Assembly: GCA_016182565.1 (NCBI GenBank)
Contig: JACPGI010000004.1
Span: forward strand, 174,775 to 238,774
Length of the DNA stretch: 64,000 nt
Direction: 5' to 3'
Origin: a candidate division WWE3 bacterium
Lineage (GTDB): Bacteria > Patescibacteriota > WWE3 > UBA101185 > UBA10185
How positions within the stretch are numbered: the stretch's first letter is position 1; each line of letters starts with the position of its first letter. Below the pieces are notes generated by a model, which was not told the DNA's origin, did not search any database, and saw only the letters and a list, made by a program, of their open reading frames with translations. Made by a program: the position numbers and the translations under genes. Shown here in pieces: positions 5,506 to 63,302 of this stretch.

Positions 5506-6117
5506 ATGAGCAAGCAAAAGTTTATTGATGTAGTGTTTGGCTTTTCGTTGGCGTTGATTTTGTTTATGCTTCTTTTTTGGTCTCTGCCCTACTTTGGGTA
5601 CACCATCACATTGACGCAAACAGCGCCTGTAAAGCCAATTGTCGTTGACCTGGGCGCGGAAATGCCCACTGCGGCAGATGCACAAACGCTGCCTGCGGCA
5701 ACTACAACGGCAACTGTCACTCCCTCTTCAACGGCTACAGTTTTCCCATCAACAGCATGTAATGTGTGGAAGCTAAAAGCCGGGGGAGCAACATTATATT
5801 CTGAACCTGACGGAGACACCGCAACTCAAATCTCAGTTTCATCAAGTCCTGATGCTGCGACTGTATGCATTCAGGCTATCAAAGGCAACTGGGTAAAAGT
5901 TACGGTGTGGGCGGTAAATATCGGGAATAAGAATGAACCCCACCGTGCCTACGATGGGTGGATATATATCACCAGGCTGGAAGGCTTCGATGACGAGGCT
6001 GGGAAGATAAAACCTGAGGAAAGACTTGTTCTTGGAATCCCAACGTACTTTTCCGGAGCACTCCCGACAATGATCCCGCCTCCTGAAGTTACTATGACCC
6101 CATCACCAAGTCCCTAG
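5506..6117 (+). CDS. membrane-anchored Thr/Ala/Pro-rich protein with SH3b-like domain; compositionally foreign (GC well above local average)
   Basis: N-terminal TM helix, a TTTATVTPSSTATV low-complexity linker, an SH3b-like region (ATLYSEPDGDT...GNWVKVTVW...GWIYITRLEGF) and a Pro-rich C-terminus. Confidence 0.6.
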   Translation: MSKQKFIDVVFGFSLALILFMLLFWSLPYFGYTITLTQTAPVKPIVVDLGAEMPTAADAQTLPAATTTATVTPSSTATVFPSTACNVWKLKAGGATLYSEPDGDTATQISVSSSPDAATVCIQAIKGNWVKVTVWAVNIGNKNEPHRAYDGWIYITRLEGFDDEAGKIKPEERLVLGIPTYFSGALPTMIPPPEVTMTPSPSP

Positions 6118-32936: not shown

Positions 32937-34676
32937 CTAATGTAAGATGTTTTGCAATTCTTTATATGTCAGTGTATTTAAAACCTCTTTTTTTGTGCAC
33001 CATCCACGCCTCGCAACATCAATTCCACTTTTCATATATAAAAGGTCGGTTACAGAATGAGCATCAGATCCTATCATCATAGGTATTCCCATTTTGATTG
33101 CGTCATATACAAGATGATCTGGTAAATCAAGCCTTGATGGCTGACCGTTTATTTCAAGTATCTTTTTATTCTTTAATGCTGCTTCAAATACTTTTGTCCA
33201 ATCAAGATCCAGTGCTTCACGCTGGTTTATAGTTCTTCCGGATGGATGACCAAGAATTGTTACATATGGGTTTTCTAGAGCTGCAATTGTTCTTTTTGTA
33301 ACTTCCTCACGTGGCATATCAAATGAGGTATGGATTGATGCAATCACATAGTCAAGTTTTTTAAGAAGCTCATCAGGCATCGCAAGTGTTGCATCTTTTA
33401 AGATGTTTACTTCATATCCAAACAAAACTTTTATCTTCTTCTGAGATGAGTTTATTTTCTCTATCTCCTCACGTCTTTTTTGCATAATTTGTTCTACCTC
33501 TTTAATCCCACGATTTATAACACTTGGGGCGTGATCTGCTATACCTATAAATTCGTAACCCAGCTCAATTGCCGCCTCAACCATCTCATTTAAAGTGTTA
33601 ACTCCATCAGATGCTGTTGTATGGACATGTAAGTCGCCTTTTATATCAGATACTTTCACAAGCTCTGGAAGTGCATTAAGTGCTGCTAGCTCTATCTCGT
33701 CTTTGCCTTCGCGTAATTCCGGTGGCACAAAGCTAAGTCCCATAAATCCATAAAACTTTTTTTCATCTTCAAATTTTTTTAATTTATTACCTTGTTTAAT
33801 ACCGTATTGAGAAAGTGACAACCCAAGGTCAAGTGCATGTTGGCGAAGTCTTATGTTGTGTTGTTTGGAACCAGTGAAATGTTGCAACAGCGATCCATAA
33901 GAATCTATGTCGGATACGAGTACATCAATTTGAGTATCATTTGTCAGAATAACAGTGGACATACGGTCTCCTTTTGATTCAACATTTTTTATCTCTGGAT
34001 ATGTTATGAAGTGTTCTATAACTTTTTCTGGGTTCTTTGACGAAACTGCTATATCAAGATCTCCCACAGTTGCAGCGCGTCTTCTTAGAGAACCCAATGA
34101 AATTGCCTCATTAACTTCTGGGATCTGTTTTAAATAAGAGATAATTCTGGATGAAATATCTTCAGCTTGGGAAAGAAGCATTCTTTGCTTTTCTTGTTTA
34201 CTTTTTTTAAGTTGATCAACGGAATCTAAAATATCTTTTTCAGATTTTGGACCAAAACCAGGAAGTTTTTGAATAAGTCCTTTTTTGGCGGCTTCTTTGA
34301 TTTTTTCCAATGCATCAATTCGGCTTAAAATATTAAATTCCTTTGAAAGTTTAAAAGCAGTTTTAGCCCCAACTCCCCTTAATACAAGTAGAGCAAACAT
34401 ACCATCTGGTAAATCTTTTTTCTTATTTTCCCATTCGGTGGCTTTTCCGGTTTTAAATAATTCAGATAAATGTTGGACTAAAGCTGCTCCAACACCACTT
34501 ATTTCACCCAAACGATCATTTTCCCAAAGATCATAAACACTCATGGTCAAGCCTTCTATCGAGGAAATAGCGTTTTGGTAAGCCCGGATACCAAACTTGT
34601 TATCGCCTTTTATTTCCATGGCTGCCACAGCCTCTTTTAACATCACAAGAACTTCTTTGTTTGAAAATCTTGGCAT
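32937..34676 (-). CDS. polX: family X DNA polymerase with C-terminal PHP phosphoesterase domain (PolX)
   Basis: Pol-beta-like HhH/fingers and palm at the N-terminus; C-terminal PHP histidines (HVHT..SDG, DAH). Confidence 0.8.
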   Translation of the reverse strand: MPRFSNKEVLVMLKEAVAAMEIKGDNKFGIRAYQNAISSIEGLTMSVYDLWENDRLGEISGVGAALVQHLSELFKTGKATEWENKKKDLPDGMFALLVLRGVGAKTAFKLSKEFNILSRIDALEKIKEAAKKGLIQKLPGFGPKSEKDILDSVDQLKKSKQEKQRMLLSQAEDISSRIISYLKQIPEVNEAISLGSLRRRAATVGDLDIAVSSKNPEKVIEHFITYPEIKNVESKGDRMSTVILTNDTQIDVLVSDIDSYGSLLQHFTGSKQHNIRLRQHALDLGLSLSQYGIKQGNKLKKFEDEKKFYGFMGLSFVPPELREGKDEIELAALNALPELVKVSDIKGDLHVHTTASDGVNTLNEMVEAAIELGYEFIGIADHAPSVINRGIKEVEQIMQKRREEIEKINSSQKKIKVLFGYEVNILKDATLAMPDELLKKLDYVIASIHTSFDMPREEVTKRTIAALENPYVTILGHPSGRTINQREALDLDWTKVFEAALKNKKILEINGQPSRLDLPDHLVYDAIKMGIPMMIGSDAHSVTDLLYMKSGIDVARRGWCTKKEVLNTLTYKELQNILH

Positions 34677-35592: not shown

Positions 35593-35667
35593 GCGGGTGT
35601 GGCTCAGTGGTAGAGTGTCTCCTTCCCAAGGAGAAGATCGCGGGTTCGAGTCCCGTCACCCGCTCCA
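35593..35667 (+). tRNA. tRNA-Gly (CCC)
   Basis: Cloverleaf folded by hand; anticodon loop UUCCCAA; CCA encoded. Confidence 0.8.
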
Positions 35668-35692
35668 AAAATTGAACTTAATTCAATATCAT

Positions 35693-36235
35693 ATGAAACA
35701 TAAAATTTTAGTTTTAGCATATCCAGGCTCAGGTAAAACTTATCTAGCAGATCATTACAAGAATATAAGTGATTTTGAATTCCAGCACTATAGATATGAT
35801 TATGGGGAACTTAAACACTTGCCACTCGAACAGCTAAAAGGCAGAACAGAGATTAGAACAAACAATCCAGATTGGCCACACAACTTCTTTAAAGCATTGG
35901 ATGGTGAACTTAAAAAAGGAAGGATTGTATTAGTCCCATTTGCAACATCATTACTAAAAATACTAAATCACCTTGAAACTTCTAGTGGAACTAGAATTAT
36001 ATTTGCAATACAAAATAAAGATTTCTTTGAACAATTAGCAGAAAATTTTAGAAATAGAGGAAATAGCGATGAATTTATAGAAAGACGTAGAAACGATTTT
36101 CAAAAATGTCATGAAATAATTGCGAATTCAAAATTTGAAAAAGTATATATCAGCAATAATGAGTTTTTAGAGGACGCATTGTCAAGGATCGGAGTTAAAT
36201 TCGAAGAAGGACAAGGTTTGAAAAATTATGTTTAG
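35693..36235 (+). CDS. P-loop NTPase/kinase-like protein
   Basis: The track start overlaps tRNA-Gly, so the start was moved to MKHKILVLAYPGSGKTYLA (Walker A). Confidence 0.5.
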   Translation: MKHKILVLAYPGSGKTYLADHYKNISDFEFQHYRYDYGELKHLPLEQLKGRTEIRTNNPDWPHNFFKALDGELKKGRIVLVPFATSLLKILNHLETSSGTRIIFAIQNKDFFEQLAENFRNRGNSDEFIERRRNDFQKCHEIIANSKFEKVYISNNEFLEDALSRIGVKFEEGQGLKNYV

Positions 36236-36303
36236 TATCTAATAGCCTGGAGAATATAGTTTGCTTAGGAGTTTTCAGACTCAAATAGTGTTCTAAAACT
36301 AAA

Positions 36304-37116
36304 ATGTATCAAACGGTTAAACTCACAAACCAGATAAAACTTAATGATCTACAAAAGAAAGTAATATCAGATGTAGCTTACGACCTTAATTTAATAAAAA
36401 CCAAAGTTAATTTTCTTGATGATATAGTAGTGCGTGCGGGCTTTGTTGCAGATACTTTATTTAACGTGGAACCACACGACATAGATGCTTATTACACAAC
36501 AAAAGAGCAAATCGGAGTAAAATTTCAAAAGTGTCGCTGCGATGAAATAAGAAACTTAATAAAAGATTGTAACTTTAAATTAATGAATACAAAATATGAG
36601 CTAGATTTGGGGCATTCTGGCGAGGGAGAATTATATATCCCGCCGGTAGCAAAAATGACTGGATTTTTTTCACATTTATGGGAAGTTGCAAACATGGTCT
36701 GCATTGATAGCAACGCAGATGTATGGGGAAATAAAGAAGCGTTTGATTGTATTACAAACCGCATACATGAAATAAGATTTGATGGCTGGTTATACTACCC
36801 TTATTTTATAAGAGAATTTCCTCATGTAGATTATTACTACTATTACGCTAATAATTGCCTACGTGGACTACGCACCATATTTATTAAAAAATACACCGGA
36901 ATTGGACCAAACTATAAAATGCTACTTGAAAATGCAAAACTTATTCTAGATTATGTTGTAACTGTACCTGAGTATAAAGAAGAATATAGAAACTACCACA
37001 AGAAGAAAATGTACAATATGAGTTTAGATGATTTGAAACTAGCACTAAAGGTAACAAAAGTTAACAATCAAGACTATTTATTAGAGAAGTTTGCGGAAAT
37101 ACTTTTTAACGACTAG
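36304..37116 (+). CDS. hypothetical protein with pol-beta-superfamily nucleotidyltransferase-like motif
   Basis: AGFVADTLFNVEPHDID resembles the hG[GS]x9-13DhD NTase signature. Confidence 0.35.
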   Translation: MYQTVKLTNQIKLNDLQKKVISDVAYDLNLIKTKVNFLDDIVVRAGFVADTLFNVEPHDIDAYYTTKEQIGVKFQKCRCDEIRNLIKDCNFKLMNTKYELDLGHSGEGELYIPPVAKMTGFFSHLWEVANMVCIDSNADVWGNKEAFDCITNRIHEIRFDGWLYYPYFIREFPHVDYYYYYANNCLRGLRTIFIKKYTGIGPNYKMLLENAKLILDYVVTVPEYKEEYRNYHKKKMYNMSLDDLKLALKVTKVNNQDYLLEKFAEILFND

Positions 37117-37186: not shown

Positions 37187-38248
37187 TTAAAATGTCACGT
37201 CATATCTTCTACCATCGCCCAACATAGGAAACTTTTTCAGAAGTGTTGCCCACTCTTGGGGGTTTGCTGTTAGTGCTCTTTTTAAGTCCGCTATAGTACA
37301 CTTATCACCATGTGATAGATATACACGAGGTGATAGCCAAATACGACTTGACCAATTTCTGACTATCTCAGCCAATGTTCCACGCGGATCACTGTAGTCA
37401 CGCACAAGAAGTGCTGGCTTAACTAGCAAACGACTGGAAAGGTAGTATGAAGATTTTCCGGATACTCTACCCCCAAGTTTAAACGTAGCCTCCCATAGAG
37501 TCAGACTATCCCAATTTTCTTTCCAAGGAAAACCGCCCTTACATCCCGAAGGACTTGGACTTCTATCACTTTTCGCTACAATAATCCCATCTTTTTGTCG
37601 ACGAATTGCGTGATACACTGTTTCTTGCATCTGATGACTACAAACCGGACATGGAAACTTCAAAATTACACCCCCATCAGGTACTGCCTTAGTTAGACTT
37701 GATACCCTCATTCCTGCAAACTGGGATTCAAAAATACGAACTTGGTAACCAAAAACTCTGATCAAATTCCCAAAACCCAAATAGGGAATCATCAAAAGCC
37801 ACATACCGATGACCGTAAACCAACGTCCAAGTACAGCCCAGTAAACTCCACTAGATATTGGTGCAAATTTTGGTGATATGCGGTCCATAATCCCAGTCTT
37901 TTGATAAAATCTGAGCCAAAATTTATTTGCACTGGGGGAAATTTTCCAAAGTTTTCCGTATTCGTCATGAGTTCCGCCACAACCAACTTCGGTAACTACT
38001 CGCACTAGTGGGCTTGTATGAATAAGTGCAACAAGAGACACAAATGCTTCTTCGACACGGAAGTTTGGAACAGGTGAGCTTGCATCACTTACCAAAAGCC
38101 TTCCAAACAATGGGATTTTTCGGGCATTTAAACGCTTTCCCCAACGAGCAAGGTACACTGGGACTGCTTCAAGAATACCGCCTGAAACCACCGTAGAGCT
38201 TGTAACTTTTACCATTCTTCTCTCCTTTGTTTGATATAAAAAGCTCAA
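37187..38248 (-). CDS. hypothetical protein, GC-rich relative to surroundings; last gene of PIG-L/GT4 operon
   Basis: The track start is a TTG. A likely internal ATG start MVKVTSS lies about 33 nt downstream. No confident family assignment. Confidence 0.45.
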   Translation of the reverse strand: MSFLYQTKERRMVKVTSSTVVSGGILEAVPVYLARWGKRLNARKIPLFGRLLVSDASSPVPNFRVEEAFVSLVALIHTSPLVRVVTEVGCGGTHDEYGKLWKISPSANKFWLRFYQKTGIMDRISPKFAPISSGVYWAVLGRWFTVIGMWLLMIPYLGFGNLIRVFGYQVRIFESQFAGMRVSSLTKAVPDGGVILKFPCPVCSHQMQETVYHAIRRQKDGIIVAKSDRSPSPSGCKGGFPWKENWDSLTLWEATFKLGGRVSGKSSYYLSSRLLVKPALLVRDYSDPRGTLAEIVRNWSSRIWLSPRVYLSHGDKCTIADLKRALTANPQEWATLLKKFPMLGDGRRYDVTF

Positions 38249-39417
38249 CAGATTTTGTTGTCTTTTTTTAATACACTTTCATAAAATTTACCTAGCTGTT
38301 TAGCTTGGTTTTTAAAAGTGTACTTTCTTTGAACATATTTCATTGCCTCAAGTGCCTTGCGCTTTTCTTTTACTAAGTTTTTAGCACCAAAAGCCCGGTG
38401 TATCTTTTTTGCTAAATCCCGAGCATCTGCCGGCTCTACCAGAATTGCAAATCGGCCCTTATTTGTAGCCTCAGTTAACCCACCCACATTTGTACAGATC
38501 ACTGGAATTCCCATAGCCAACGCTTCAATAACCGCATTTCCCCAAGATTCGGTCAACGATGGGTGTATATAAAAATCAGTTTTTGCTAAGTAGTTACATA
38601 TTAGTGAATTCTCTATATAACCAGTAAACTCAATATTCTCTTCTAACCTGTGATACGTAACTAATCTTTTCATTTCAAGCTCATCTGATCCTCCGCCAAT
38701 TAATCGCACTGAAAAATCCATACCTTGCTTTTTCAAAATTTTTATAGCATCAATCAAATAATTAATCCCTTTCAAAAAAGATATTTCCCCAACATAGGTA
38801 AGATTTACACGCCTCACTTCAGAATAAGCTTCCAAGTTTTTCTGTACAGTTGTGCAGCCGTTTCGAATGACTTGAACTTTTTTACTTATACCGAGCTGTA
38901 GTAAGGTGTCATTTACGCTATTAGATGGGCCTGACAAATACACATTTGGGGCCATTAGATACTGCTTTAGTTCACTAAATTTTCTATCCTTTTCAAGATG
39001 TGTATCAGTGTAAACAGCAGAAAACGGAATGTGATCATACACAGTTCGGAACGCAAAAATGCATGGCTTGTTTGTTTCGACGCAAATTTTTAATCCGATC
39101 ATACTTGCAGGTCGAAACGAAAAAGTGAAATGTATATGTACGATGTCAGCTTCCTCTATAAGTTTCTCCAACTGTGCTACAGTTGTTAAATAGACAAGCT
39201 TTACCTCATCTGTTACCAAAACATTGGAAACATTTTTAACAGTTTCTGATGTAAGCCGACTCGTAGCTATTGTCGTATCATAACCAAGTGTTATTAAGTG
39301 CTTATTCGTCTCAAATGTATTCACCTCTACACCACCACCTTCTTTGGGTGGGTAGTCATGAATATTTAAAATTTTCCTCTTTATTTCGTTTTGCATTTTT
39401 GTTTCACCAAATAACAA
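38245..39417 (-). CDS. GT4-family (GT-B) glycosyltransferase
   Basis: E-x7-E region ESWGNAVIEALAMGIPVI. Confidence 0.8.
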   Translation of the reverse strand: MLFGETKMQNEIKRKILNIHDYPPKEGGGVEVNTFETNKHLITLGYDTTIATSRLTSETVKNVSNVLVTDEVKLVYLTTVAQLEKLIEEADIVHIHFTFSFRPASMIGLKICVETNKPCIFAFRTVYDHIPFSAVYTDTHLEKDRKFSELKQYLMAPNVYLSGPSNSVNDTLLQLGISKKVQVIRNGCTTVQKNLEAYSEVRRVNLTYVGEISFLKGINYLIDAIKILKKQGMDFSVRLIGGGSDELEMKRLVTYHRLEENIEFTGYIENSLICNYLAKTDFYIHPSLTESWGNAVIEALAMGIPVICTNVGGLTEATNKGRFAILVEPADARDLAKKIHRAFGAKNLVKEKRKALEAMKYVQRKYTFKNQAKQLGKFYESVLKKDNKIC

Positions 39418-39439
39418 TTACTAAGACACACCAAAACAC

Positions 39440-40192
39440 TCAACTTCCAATTTCAACAAACTCATTCAAAATCCGAGCAGCCTCCGGTTTGAACTTAAAC
39501 CATGTTGGGTTCAAAAAATCATAGCTTTCCCCATATTTAAATCCGACCCTCGATCCACGCATCATTGCTTGACCTTCTGCAAAACTGTTTAAGTAATCAT
39601 CAATTCTTCCGTCATAAGCTATTTTTGACGCTTCAATTTTCGCACTGTGAGTACTTGATGTATTAAACGTAATCAAAGGGTTTGGTAATACATTCAAACC
39701 GTCTGATTGCAAAAGTATGCCTGTTTTCAATGGTTCCCCAAGCTCAGGACAAGTTTTTCGGCAAGCAAACTCAAACGCTCTTGCACCAATTAAATGAGAT
39801 ACGGTATGCTCGAAGTGATAATCCTCTTTATTCATCAAAACAGTCACATCAGGTCTTATTGCACGCATTATCTTTGTGACTGCAAAAACCATCTCCTCAT
39901 TTTCAGCAAAAATTCTTTTTTCTGAATCTAAAACTATGGGTTTTTGAGCGCCTAATAACTCGCAGTACAGTGACACTTCTTTTATTCGGTTATGCTTAAT
40001 TTGCTCCGATGTTATTTCCCCAGTACCACTTATTGCGTTCTTTCCCGGTGTACATACAATTTCATGTACAAGCCAACCACTGTCTGCCAATTTTTTCATG
40101 GTACCCCCGACTTCAATGTCATCGTCCGGATGGGCACAAATATATAAAAATGTTCGCGATTTCTGCTTTTTTTCTGTTACTTTTTCTTTCAT
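39440..40192 (-). CDS. PIG-L/LmbE-family deacetylase (second copy in window)
   Basis: CAHPDDDIEVGGT motif. Confidence 0.75.
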   Translation of the reverse strand: MKEKVTEKKQKSRTFLYICAHPDDDIEVGGTMKKLADSGWLVHEIVCTPGKNAISGTGEITSEQIKHNRIKEVSLYCELLGAQKPIVLDSEKRIFAENEEMVFAVTKIMRAIRPDVTVLMNKEDYHFEHTVSHLIGARAFEFACRKTCPELGEPLKTGILLQSDGLNVLPNPLITFNTSSTHSAKIEASKIAYDGRIDDYLNSFAEGQAMMRGSRVGFKYGESYDFLNPTWFKFKPEAARILNEFVEIGS

Positions 40193-40570: not shown

Positions 40571-40599
40571 TTGACAGTTAACATAGTCTTGGGTATGAT
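40571..40599 (+). promoter_or_regulatory. near-consensus sigma70 promoter TTGACA-N17-TATGAT
   Basis: TTGACA at 40571-40576 and TATGAT at 40594-40599, with a 17-nt spacer. Confidence 0.55.
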
Positions 40600-40634
40600 G
40601 CCTAGACTCTCATTAATTTATTAGTGGGAATAGA

Positions 40635-40665
40635 AATAACTCCGCAAGGAGTTATTTCGTTTTCT
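40635..40665 (+). terminator. hairpin AATAACTCC-GCAA-GGAGTTATT + TCGTTTTCT about 30 nt downstream of predicted TSS
   Basis: 9-bp perfect stem, a GNRA tetraloop and a U-rich tail. Confidence 0.5.
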
Positions 40666-40826
40666 ACAAGAAAACTCCTCAACTAACAAATAATACTTTG
40701 GTTTAAATAAATTACCCACAAAACTATAACTACAGTGTAATGTTGAAATGTTTGATAAAATGAAGCTAGAAACAGAACATTTGACGTAATTTGGGGCACC
40801 TCAAAGTCTACATGTCTAAAAACCAA

Positions 40827-40901
40827 GCCGGAATAGCTCAATGGTAGAGCAATTGCATCGTAAGCAATAGGTTGTGGGTTCGATTCCCACCTCCGGCTCC
40901 A
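40827..40901 (+). tRNA. tRNA-Thr (CGT)
   Basis: Cloverleaf folded by hand; anticodon loop AUCGUAA; one A-C mismatch at the base of the acceptor stem; CCA encoded. Confidence 0.75.
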
Positions 40902-62459: not shown

Positions 62460-63302
62460 TTACTCCCTCTTCTTTGTCCACATGTGCAGGAAGTACATAT
62501 CTAAGTGAAACCAAATAACAAGAAGGTAAATCAAAGTCCAAACGCATATCCCAATTGGATTTAACCCCTTCATGGGTGAAATCAACATTAAGAATAAGGC
62601 GAAGGGCCAAGACTGAACACTAAACAAGTCACGGTATTTAAGTTTATCGGGATCTATTTGTCCTCCCCGAGTGACATCATTGATTCGGCTTAATGCATAG
62701 CTCGCAGCGTAGATAAAAAATACCATTACCATAAGCTGAACCAAGCCGAAATTTTGGCCCCAAATTATGCTTTTTGAACCGAAACCCAGGAAAAGCAGAA
62801 CTGCCACAGTTATACCCCTAAAATTACGCAGGACCAGTCTTATTAATTGACCCAAACCTGTAATCAAATGGAGAAGTTCGGTGTCTGGTGCAGGTGGGTA
62901 TTTCCAATTGAAAGCCAATGTCGCCATAACCACCCCAAAGAATATCAAAAACACGTAAAGGTAGTTGAATGGGGAGCTTAGTGTTGCTACCCAAAGCATC
63001 CCAATACATATAAACATGATCGCGCCGGCTGTGTCTTCAAAGAAATGATAGTCCTTTGAAACTTGTCCTTTATTCCCACTTCCTGCCACGATAACCACCT
63101 CATGCACCCGCACAACGCGCGTAAGTAGGTAACAAATCAAGGTGATAATGGCAAAATTTTGCCATATTGGCGCATCAGCCGGCCAGAGAAGTTTGCGAAA
63201 AACCACCCCACCAAACACAACCAGCAGAAACAATATGGCATCAAAGATAAAGGCCAATGTCTTCACCCCAGCACCAGTCTTAATTAAATTCAAGCTGTTC
63301 AT
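62460..63302 (-). CDS. hypothetical polytopic membrane protein embedded in dcw cluster
   Basis: 280 aa, about 8 TM helices; no family-diagnostic motif recognised; GC slightly above local average. Confidence 0.5.
   Translation of the reverse strand: MNSLNLIKTGAGVKTLAFIFDAILFLLVVFGGVVFRKLLWPADAPIWQNFAIITLICYLLTRVVRVHEVVIVAGSGNKGQVSKDYHFFEDTAGAIMFICIGMLWVATLSSPFNYLYVFLIFFGVVMATLAFNWKYPPAPDTELLHLITGLGQLIRLVLRNFRGITVAVLLFLGFGSKSIIWGQNFGLVQLMVMVFFIYAASYALSRINDVTRGGQIDPDKLKYRDLFSVQSWPFALFLMLISPMKGLNPIGICVWTLIYLLVIWFHLDMYFLHMWTKKRE

Follow-up and report, generated by a model that had tools for sequence, protein, structure and literature searches.

Does a tRNA gene that is followed by a P-loop kinase gene and a nucleotidyltransferase gene mark a two-enzyme module on integrated DNA, or have unrelated genes come to lie side by side? 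The question is raised by a locus in a 64,000-nt stretch of DNA from a candidate division WWE3 bacterium (assembly GCA_016182565.1, contig JACPGI010000004.1, positions 174,775 to 238,774, forward strand), which was analysed at its full length and is called the window in the following. WWE3 belongs to the Candidate Phyla Radiation (CPR). Downstream of a tRNA-Gly(CCC) gene lie two open reading frames (ORFs), one for a P-loop protein and one for a protein with a G-x12-DxD motif, which we designate NT for nucleotidyltransferase. An initial annotation, made from the sequence alone, had read the pair as a kinase-nucleotidyltransferase module. It located the features correctly (Table 1), but the P-loop ATG at 35693 lies 25 nt downstream of the CCA of the tRNA-Gly(CCC) gene, not 26. 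In the database records the two products are found, with identical sequence, as the hypothetical proteins HYV31_02430 and HYV31_02435.

Both ORFs are under strong purifying selection, with non-synonymous and synonymous differences per site (pN and pS) of ~0.1 and ~0.7, and are therefore considered real genes. We estimate with a probability of roughly 0.6 that this part of the WWE3 genome is a segment of variable content, bounded by tRNA genes, in which genes were acquired or retained independently of each other, and not a kinase-NT operon module.

Distribution of the P-loop and NT genes

The adjacency of the P-loop and NT genes was found in the window genome only. Related loci are cited here by their L numbers. 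None of five independent P-loop loci (including L012/L013, L014, L015/L016 and L027) contains an NT gene. Conversely, no P-loop gene is present at the NT loci L001, L003-L007, L017, L018-L020, L021, L023, L024, L025 and L026, nor does any other NT locus in which the upstream gene is visible have one. In L012/L013, where the P-loop protein is 82% identical to that of the window, the order is tRNA-Gly(CCC), P-loop gene, unrelated genes and tRNA-Thr(CGT). In Dojkabacteria L014 (75% identity) a cupin gene lies between tRNA-Gly(CCC) and the P-loop gene, which is again followed by unrelated genes and tRNA-Thr(CGT). L015/L016 and L027 (the closest P-loop relative, 87%) show the gene in other contexts. 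An all-against-all comparison of the neighbours of NT did not reveal a conserved neighbour either.

This distribution largely refutes the proposed module, in which the P-loop kinase and NT, carried on DNA integrated at tRNA-Gly, would work together, be it in RNA-end healing or tailing of the Pnkp/Hen1 type, in nucleotide signalling or in antibiotic modification. The genes are direct neighbours in the same orientation, and the 68 nt between them contain no predicted terminator. A kinase fold and a nucleotidyltransferase fold were each confirmed, and the combination of an RNA-end kinase with an RNA-end nucleotidyltransferase would be biochemically coherent. Against this stand five P-loop contexts without NT and at least eight NT contexts without the P-loop gene, as well as the unequal abundance of the families (~100 P-loop clusters versus 7 NT clusters at 90% identity). 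PADLOC gives nothing for NT and noise for the P-loop protein, whose fold is nearest to small-molecule nucleoside monophosphate (NMP) and sugar kinases, with no polynucleotide kinase in the top 50 matches. We thus consider a two-enzyme module highly improbable.

NT as a predicted offshoot of the class II tRNA nucleotidyltransferases

NT has few relatives. Among 5.8 billion proteins, a word-indexed search yielded 7 clusters (90% identity). Among 1.84 billion representatives (50% identity), a profile search gave 40 hits at E <= 1e-3. The members are ~265 aa long, and those of full length span 242-275 aa. The members bearing names belong to WWE3, Shapirobacteria and Dojkabacteria, all of which are CPR lineages. 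In an alignment of 34 family sequences with identities down to 17-30%, the residues G46, D50, D59 and D61 are the sole invariant columns, and L28, Y64, C77, C79, D101, R187 and G201 are near-invariant. Because only these four residues are invariant across such highly diverged members, the motif is not a product of chance. The family consensus VRGGFVLDxLLGxxPxDIDxxY has a spacing identical to that of motif A of the class II enzymes (GGxVRDxLLGxxxxDxD); the NT of the window has AG where the family has GG. D59, D61 and, probably as the third, D101 are candidate catalytic carboxylates.

An AlphaFold model of NT, made with the family alignment (pLDDT 94.8, pTM 0.90), was compared to the PDB with Foldseek. 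At E <= 1e-3, 37 of 38 matches were class II CCA-, CC- or A-adding enzymes or the poly(A) polymerase (PAP) of Escherichia coli, and one was a FAM46B chain. The fold matches have E values of 1e-6 to 1e-3 and TM scores of ~0.5 when normalised to the query and 0.3-0.4 when normalised to the ~400-aa targets. When the family profile was compared with the PDB sequences, the top ten were class II enzymes or PAP, all of them at motif A, with E values of 0.008-0.09. PF01743 is weakly matched by 9 of the 34 members (best E 0.011). The window NT does not match it at the Pfam gathering threshold and has no match above threshold in Pfam, NCBIfam, PHROGs or PADLOC.

The CD-NTase, MNT and aminoglycoside nucleotidyltransferase (ANT) families, to which the initial annotation had pointed, are not represented among the top 50 PDB fold matches, and AbiEii is likewise not found among the top matches. 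The aminoglycoside nucleotidyltransferase model PF10706 has a weak match to a single member of the family (E 0.16). The matches in BFVD are viral tRNA nucleotidyltransferase and PolyA_pol proteins, which are no closer than those in the PDB. IMG/VR contained no NT relative and no copy of the repeat described below, and a tblastn search of the INPHARED phages returned nothing for NT or the P-loop protein. A phage origin of NT was rejected on these grounds.

The general assignment of the protein was borne out by the invariant motif A residues and the class II fold match. According to the model and the family alignment, NT is predicted to be a nucleotidyltransferase of the pol-beta superfamily, more precisely a divergent and truncated offshoot of the class II enzymes. 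The defining features of the latter are a head-neck-body-tail architecture and, in the sequence, the motifs A, BxA, B (DxxRRD) and D (EDxxR) along with a flexible loop (PMC2910056). NT consists of a head and a helical neck, and the chain stops after the neck, without a body or tail. The RRD of motif B is conserved nowhere in the family alignment, and when NT was aligned by hhalign to the E. coli CCA-adding enzyme (its sequence being entered by hand), motif A was aligned and the RRD segment fell into a gap of NT. On inspection, the near-invariant R187 is found in an xxxxRGL helix resembling PLRxLR (NNCLR in the window), with no conserved E or D before it. NT may thus have retained this arginine of the nucleotide-templating helix and lost the ED of EDxxR. 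Because the RRD, the ED, the body and the tail appear to be lost, NT should not be a canonical CCA-adding enzyme.

Among known systems, the class II tRNA nucleotidyltransferases (PF01743 head; PDB 5hc9, 3h3a, 1miv and 4wc2) provide both the best structural and the best PDB profile matches of NT. Shared features are a pol-beta head followed by a helical neck and the motif A spacing GG-x-V-x-D-x-LLG-x4-D-x-D. With ~270 instead of ~400 aa, however, NT has no body or tail and no DxxRRD, and of EDxxR it would have only the R. Two features of NT are additions relative to the class II enzymes, namely a helix at the N-terminus and a pair of conserved cysteines (CxC; C77, C79). In class II CCA-adding enzymes, the body and tail measure the tRNA, docking at its elbow, and motifs B and D choose the nucleotides, motif B by recognising the ribose and motif D as an amino-acid template for CTP and ATP.

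PcnB, the bacterial poly(A) polymerase I (PDB 3aql, 3aqm), takes rank 4 in the fold search and ranks second to fourth in the profile search. Its substrates are RNA 3' ends in general, and no tRNA has to be measured. It differs from NT in its length of at least ~415 aa, with a body, a tail and RNA-binding regions. The PAP signature that follows motif A, [LIV][LIV]G[RK][RK]Fx[LIV]h[HQL][LIV] (PMC2910056), was not seen in the NT family alignment. The FAM46/TENT5 proteins (PDB 6jyj, 8exf; Foldseek rank 28 onward, the chains after FAM46B at weaker E values) are two-domain non-canonical poly(A) polymerases and resemble NT in combining a compact nucleotidyltransferase head with a helical domain in ~300 aa. 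They are, however, eukaryotic, match the structure more weakly (TM 0.37-0.48) and have no sequence similarity to NT. We conclude that the NT family is a small, CPR-restricted family derived from the class II tRNA nucleotidyltransferases and poly(A) polymerases, and a truncated variant that had not been described.

Judging from fold and motifs, NT would catalyse a template-independent two-metal nucleotidyl transfer to a 3'-OH, most probably that of an RNA end, and its specificity for nucleotide and substrate is expected not to be that of canonical CCA addition. Could it nevertheless be a housekeeping enzyme of CCA addition or CCA repair, slimmed down as many CPR proteins are? The nearest folds (class II CCA-, CC- and A-adding enzymes and PAP), the retained motif A, the strong purifying selection and the position beside tRNA genes would agree with such a role. 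With 7 clusters (90% identity) and 40 representatives (50%), though, the family is much too small for a housekeeping gene of the CPR, and premature stops occur in two lineages. The RRD, the ED of EDxxR and the tRNA-holding body and tail are missing, and CCA is already encoded by seven of the seven tRNA genes in the window. Being rare, dispensable and cassette-like, the NT gene is also unlike those of housekeeping class II enzymes. A housekeeping function therefore seems very unlikely to us.

NT genes and tRNA 3' ends

NT relatives with at least 50% identity are always located just downstream of a tRNA gene or a tRNA remnant. The ATG of NT follows tRNA-Gly(TCC) after 2 nt in L001/L002 and tRNA-Gly(GCC) after 10 nt in L017. 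In L023, 255 nt separate NT from tRNA-Gly(CCC), and in L003/L021 an unrelated 168-aa minus-strand gene lies between tRNA-Gly(CCC) and NT. In L008-L011 and L026 a tRNA 3'-half remnant is found upstream of NT, the acceptor strand of which matches the local tRNA-Thr(CGT). The tRNA-Gly genes beside NT (CCC, TCC and GCC) differ in sequence, and their neighbourhoods are unrelated. Rfam did not recognise the tRNA-like remnant of L009 or the spacer upstream of the window NT as tRNA, and both are at most 3'-half tRNA remnants. A tRNA-3'-like remnant is also present in L014, ~80 nt past the P-loop gene.

In close relatives, NT is bracketed by direct repeats of 25-45 nt, which copy a tRNA 3' end together with its downstream flank. 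The clearest arrangement is that of L017, in which NT is the sole content between the tRNA and a copy of the 3' end of this same tRNA (13 nt exact, CCCGTTTCCCGCT), located 8 nt past the NT stop. This copy runs on into GATGTTTGAAGTTCCGA, the sequence that directly follows tRNA-Gly(CCC) in L003 and L023. In L003 a repeat of the form TTTCCAGACTCGAC-N4-GCTCCA-(A/G)ATG... is found on both sides of NT, and in L008-L011 a TTTCCAGACTCGAC-type repeat lies downstream of it. The core TTTCCAGACTCGAC is kept across genomes even though it is unlike the local tRNA sequence. An nhmmer profile of the repeat detected non-seed copies in L003 (2659-2690, E 2e-5), L023 (2119-2146, E 5e-5) and L017 (4721-4745, E 3e-3), each of them at a gene boundary and all in the same strand orientation. 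No consensus RNA structure and no inverted repeat was found in the repeats. The possibility that they are a structured RNA was thus rejected, and the lack of a conserved structure suggests a site that acts at the DNA level.

The presence of NT after three tRNA-Gly isoacceptors, together with the flanking repeats of tRNA 3' ends, points to recombination at tRNA 3' ends. The NT gene would move, or would have moved in the past, as a single-gene cassette in this way, and its insertion may proceed by site-specific or by short-homology recombination.

In L003 (876-2700), L017 (3285-4750) and L023 (405-2150), small ORFs that point either way stand singly between copies of the repeat (TTTCCAGACTCGAC-N4-GCTCCA(A/G)ATG...), a mimic of a tRNA-Gly 3' end with its flank, and thus form arrays. 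A second cassette is common to L003 and L017, where it encodes proteins of 68 and 109 aa with 38% identity over a stretch of 61 aa. The arrays look like cassette accretion at CPR tRNA-Gly genes, with no integrase in view. With their single ORFs between short direct copies of the adjacent tRNA's 3' end and flank, L003, L017 and L023 are reminiscent of tRNA-targeting integrative elements and integron-like cassette arrays. They differ from these in that the units measure only ~0.5-1 kb, that no integrase was found, that the repeats lack an inverted-repeat or RNA structure and that repeats are not recognisable in the window.

Nonsense codons interrupt NT in L001 (one, changing Y64 to TAA; L001 7722-8531) and in L017 (two, at codons 144 and 190; L017 3370-4179). 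The stop in L001/L002 is the same in two sequencing runs. As the two copies are otherwise intact and conserved, the inactivation may be recent, or the codons might be read through. Pairwise comparisons of NT genes, including these copies, gave pN values of ~0.1-0.35 and a dN/dS of ~0.06-0.2, with pS saturated. NT is thus functional where it is intact and, given the nonsense mutations in L001 and L017, dispensable in some hosts. Taken together, NT behaves as accessory DNA linked to tRNA genes.

A patchy distribution, a cassette-like site and repeated pseudogenisation are also what might be expected of a toxin-like or defence nucleotidyltransferase, which could add nucleotides to the acceptor ends of tRNA-Gly like MenT, or nucleotidylate a small molecule or antibiotic. 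The divergent nucleotide pocket suggests a non-canonical substrate, and the weak match of one member to the aminoglycoside nucleotidyltransferase model (E 0.16) points in the same direction. However, NT has no conserved neighbour that could act as an antitoxin or immunity protein. PADLOC and PHROG are blank, the MNT, AbiEii, ANT and CD-NTase folds are not among the top matches, and a dN/dS of ~0.06-0.2 at saturated dS argues for long and stable retention. We consider this role distinctly unlikely.

Several observations weigh against our view of the locus as a segment of independently acquired or retained genes. The initial annotation had led us to look for a direct repeat of the tRNA-Gly 3' end in the flanks, and the window contains no copy of it within 3 mismatches of 17 nt. 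Positions 36272-36300 (TTTTCAGACTCAAATAGTGTTCTAAAAC) resemble a decayed TTTCCAGACTCGAC-N4-GCTCCA repeat, and this site is directly upstream of the NT start, in the place of the repeat in L003 and of the tRNA remnant in L009. Its 14-mer at 36272 has 3 mismatches; there are six such matches in the window versus 3.3 expected by chance, so that it is not significant alone, and the nhmmer profile did not detect it. As the window has no intact repeat of a tRNA end, the evidence for a cassette comes from the relatives. No integrase or recombinase was found among the window genes of 32.9-42.9 kb or among the NT neighbours in L001, L003, L017, L018 and L023, and the distant NT members L018, L024 and L025 are not beside tRNAs. 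The putative equivalences to motifs B and D were drawn from sequence alignment. Because the composition is native and every comparison of NT copies shows saturated pS, any transfers of NT must be old, and the gene may have been inherited vertically with local rearrangement. Finally, the P-loop and NT genes might be co-transcribed, given the 68-nt gap without a predicted terminator, and in this single genome they may thus be linked in function in an opportunistic way.

In an alternative explanation, the tRNA linkage would be no more than ancestral synteny with local rearrangement, NT would be immobile, and recombination between adjacent tRNA genes would have left the repeats behind as by-products. 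Saturated pS among all copies and native composition fit this explanation, as do the age of the tRNA-Gly(CCC)...tRNA-Thr(CGT) bracket and the failure to find a recombinase. It does not account well for NT genes after three native tRNA-Gly isoacceptors (CCC, TCC, GCC) in unrelated neighbourhoods, for the insert of L017, which consists of NT alone between the tRNA and a copy of its own 3' end, or for a TTTCCAGACTCGAC core that is conserved across genomes and differs from the local tRNA. On balance we think it unlikely.

The opposite extreme would be a hitherto undescribed kind of minimal mobile element of the CPR, a single-gene cassette that encodes nothing but the head-and-neck remnant of a CCA-adding enzyme, homes to tRNA-Gly 3' ends and is functionally tied to its target. 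We regard this as a long shot. If true, NT could be a tRNA-Gly-specific 3'-end modifier, or it could recognise the tRNA acceptor end during insertion.

The P-loop protein

The P-loop family comprises ~100 homologue clusters (90% identity) of ~180 aa proteins, which are 55-87% identical and occur in WWE3, Dojkabacteria and other Patescibacteria. PGSGKT is invariant or near-invariant in the family. The AlphaFold model of the window protein (pLDDT 91.2) predicts an NMP-kinase-like fold. The best PDB folds are guanylate kinase (8egl), gluconokinase (3t61), UMP/CMP kinase (1uky) and adenylate kinases, with which the protein shares a five-stranded parallel sheet and the Walker A motif. The scores are modest (E at least 2e-3, TM 0.44-0.55, probability up to 0.99). 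R123 and R133 are conserved, and an arginine-rich helical segment occupies the position of the kinase LID. Residues 28-66, which are nearly invariant in the family (SDFEFQHYRYDYG...LPLEQLKGR...WPNNFF), have no counterpart among the families matched.

None of the polynucleotide kinases that the initial annotation had brought into play ranks within the first 50 structural matches. The sole solid family match of the P-loop protein is phrog_4182, annotated as function unknown (E 1.9e-11). No Pfam or NCBIfam family was matched at cut-off, the curated models matching only the P-loop itself, and PADLOC gave matches at noise level. Going by the fold, the protein would phosphorylate a substrate that is most likely small and nucleotide-like.

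The P-loop protein is 74-82% identical to the copies in L012/L013/L014, whereas GatA and GatB, compared between the same genomes, reach only 38-46%; between CPR classes it is thus about twice as conserved as these proteins. Recent horizontal transfer was examined as a cause of the 75-87% identity across classes and rejected. The synonymous sites are saturated (pN 0.08-0.24, pS ~0.7), and the high identity must therefore be due to constraint. The P-loop gene is ancient, strongly constrained and conserved in synteny. Within the variable segment that we favour, its product would be a kinase-fold enzyme unrelated to NT, located after tRNA-Gly(CCC) in distant relatives too.

The tRNA-bounded interval

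The initial annotation had taken the position next to the tRNA as typical of integrated accessory DNA. Accessory behaviour was borne out for NT, with its patchy distribution, its nonsense mutations, its position after three tRNA-Gly isoacceptors and the repeats in its relatives, but not for the P-loop gene, which turned out to be a conserved syntenic gene of ordinary composition (GC z -0.5, GC3 z -0.5). A foreign composition was rejected for both genes, as their GC and GC3 (GC at third codon positions) lie within 1 standard deviation of the 59 ORFs in the window.

The remark that the next three genes were of the accessory type was correct. These minus-strand genes (37187-40192) are absent from L008-L011, where tRNA-Thr(CGT) follows ~120 nt after NT, and are thus variable content. 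They belong to a 3.7-kb segment that is not present in syntenic relatives. The tRNA-Gly(CCC)...tRNA-Thr(CGT) bracket recurs in L012/L013 and L014. With its variable content, the interval between the two tRNA genes is marked as a hotspot of gene turnover.

Table 1. Features of the tRNA-Gly(CCC)-tRNA-Thr(CGT) interval (positions in the window)
Feature	Position	Strand	Remarks
tRNA-Gly(CCC)	35593-35667	+	CCA encoded; ARAGORN, Rfam RF00005 (71.4 bits)
P-loop ORF, 180 aa	35693..36235	+	ATG start at 35693; Walker A AYPGSGKT
Spacer between P-loop and NT genes, 68 nt	36236..36303	+	
NT ORF, 270 aa	36304..37116	+	carries RAGFVADTLFNVEPHDID
Imperfect hairpin, 11/12 pairs, 11-nt loop	37130..37164		read straight from the sequence
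~342-aa protein	37187..38215	-	ORF extends to 38248 from TTG; homologues suggest M12 as start
GT4-family glycosyltransferase, BshA/MshA-like	38245..39417	-	PF00534 1.8e-31, PF13439 1.7e-11
PIG-L family de-N-acetylase, BshB/MshB-like	39440..40192	-	PF02585 8.6e-18
tRNA-Thr(CGT)	40827..40901	+	ARAGORN and Rfam; right-hand edge of the variable segment

The ~342-aa protein has five full-length homologues (341-345 aa, 49-55% identical) and matches nothing in Pfam, NCBIfam, PHROG or PADLOC. Its ORF (353 codons from the TTG) is high in GC (42%, z +2.1) and ordinary in GC3, so that the high GC must result from the amino acid composition, which is rich in W, R and G. A structured RNA hidden in this GC-rich ORF (37.2-38.2 kb) was also considered and rejected, since Rfam was blank and the homologues show a real, if rare, protein family. 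The glycosyltransferase and the de-N-acetylase match TIGR03999 BshA (6.8e-23) and TIGR04001 BshB1 (1.1e-12), respectively, both under the model cut-off. Given these BshA-like and BshB-like neighbours, the ~342-aa protein could be the third enzyme of a pathway to a glucosamine-based glycoconjugate or thiol. The hairpin listed in Table 1 sits between the convergent NT and 342/353-aa ORFs and is possibly a bidirectional terminator; it did not come up when the sequence was scanned for consensus terminators.

With Rfam, tRNAs were the sole hits, both in the window as a whole and in a scan of 35.4-41 kb. In the 630-nt gene-free stretch preceding tRNA-Thr(CGT), positions 40571-40668 (+) contain a near-consensus sigma-70-like promoter (TTGACA-17-TATGAT, 11/12 matches), followed after ~35 nt by an 11-bp hairpin with a T-run. 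This would correspond to a small-RNA candidate of ~60 nt, for which there is no Rfam match. A second pol-beta-fold enzyme is encoded nearby, just upstream of tRNA-Asp: a PolX-family DNA polymerase (HHH_8, pol-beta palm and thumb, PHP domain) at 32937-34676 (-), which has no relation to the findings on NT. The strongest compositional outliers of the window are ORFs at 5506-6117 (+; GC 48.5%, GC3 45%) and 62460-63302 (-; GC3 47.5%). Neither has a Pfam match, and both may be foreign. The former is equipped with a good ribosome-binding site (GGAG), and its product, which begins with a hydrophobic segment, is probably secreted.

Significance

Nothing in these data supports the kinase-nucleotidyltransferase module that was first proposed. 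The constraint on the P-loop protein is unusually strong for a protein without an assigned function, and the protein may therefore be an essential kinase that has been missing from the inventory of the reduced CPR genomes. The NT family has kept the catalytic head and the neck under strong selection and appears to have lost the elements of specificity, and thus shows other uses of the class II scaffold. Mobile elements of the CPR are poorly known. The placement of NT after tRNA-Gly genes and between copies of tRNA 3' ends points to a route of cassette turnover in CPR genomes that had not been described.

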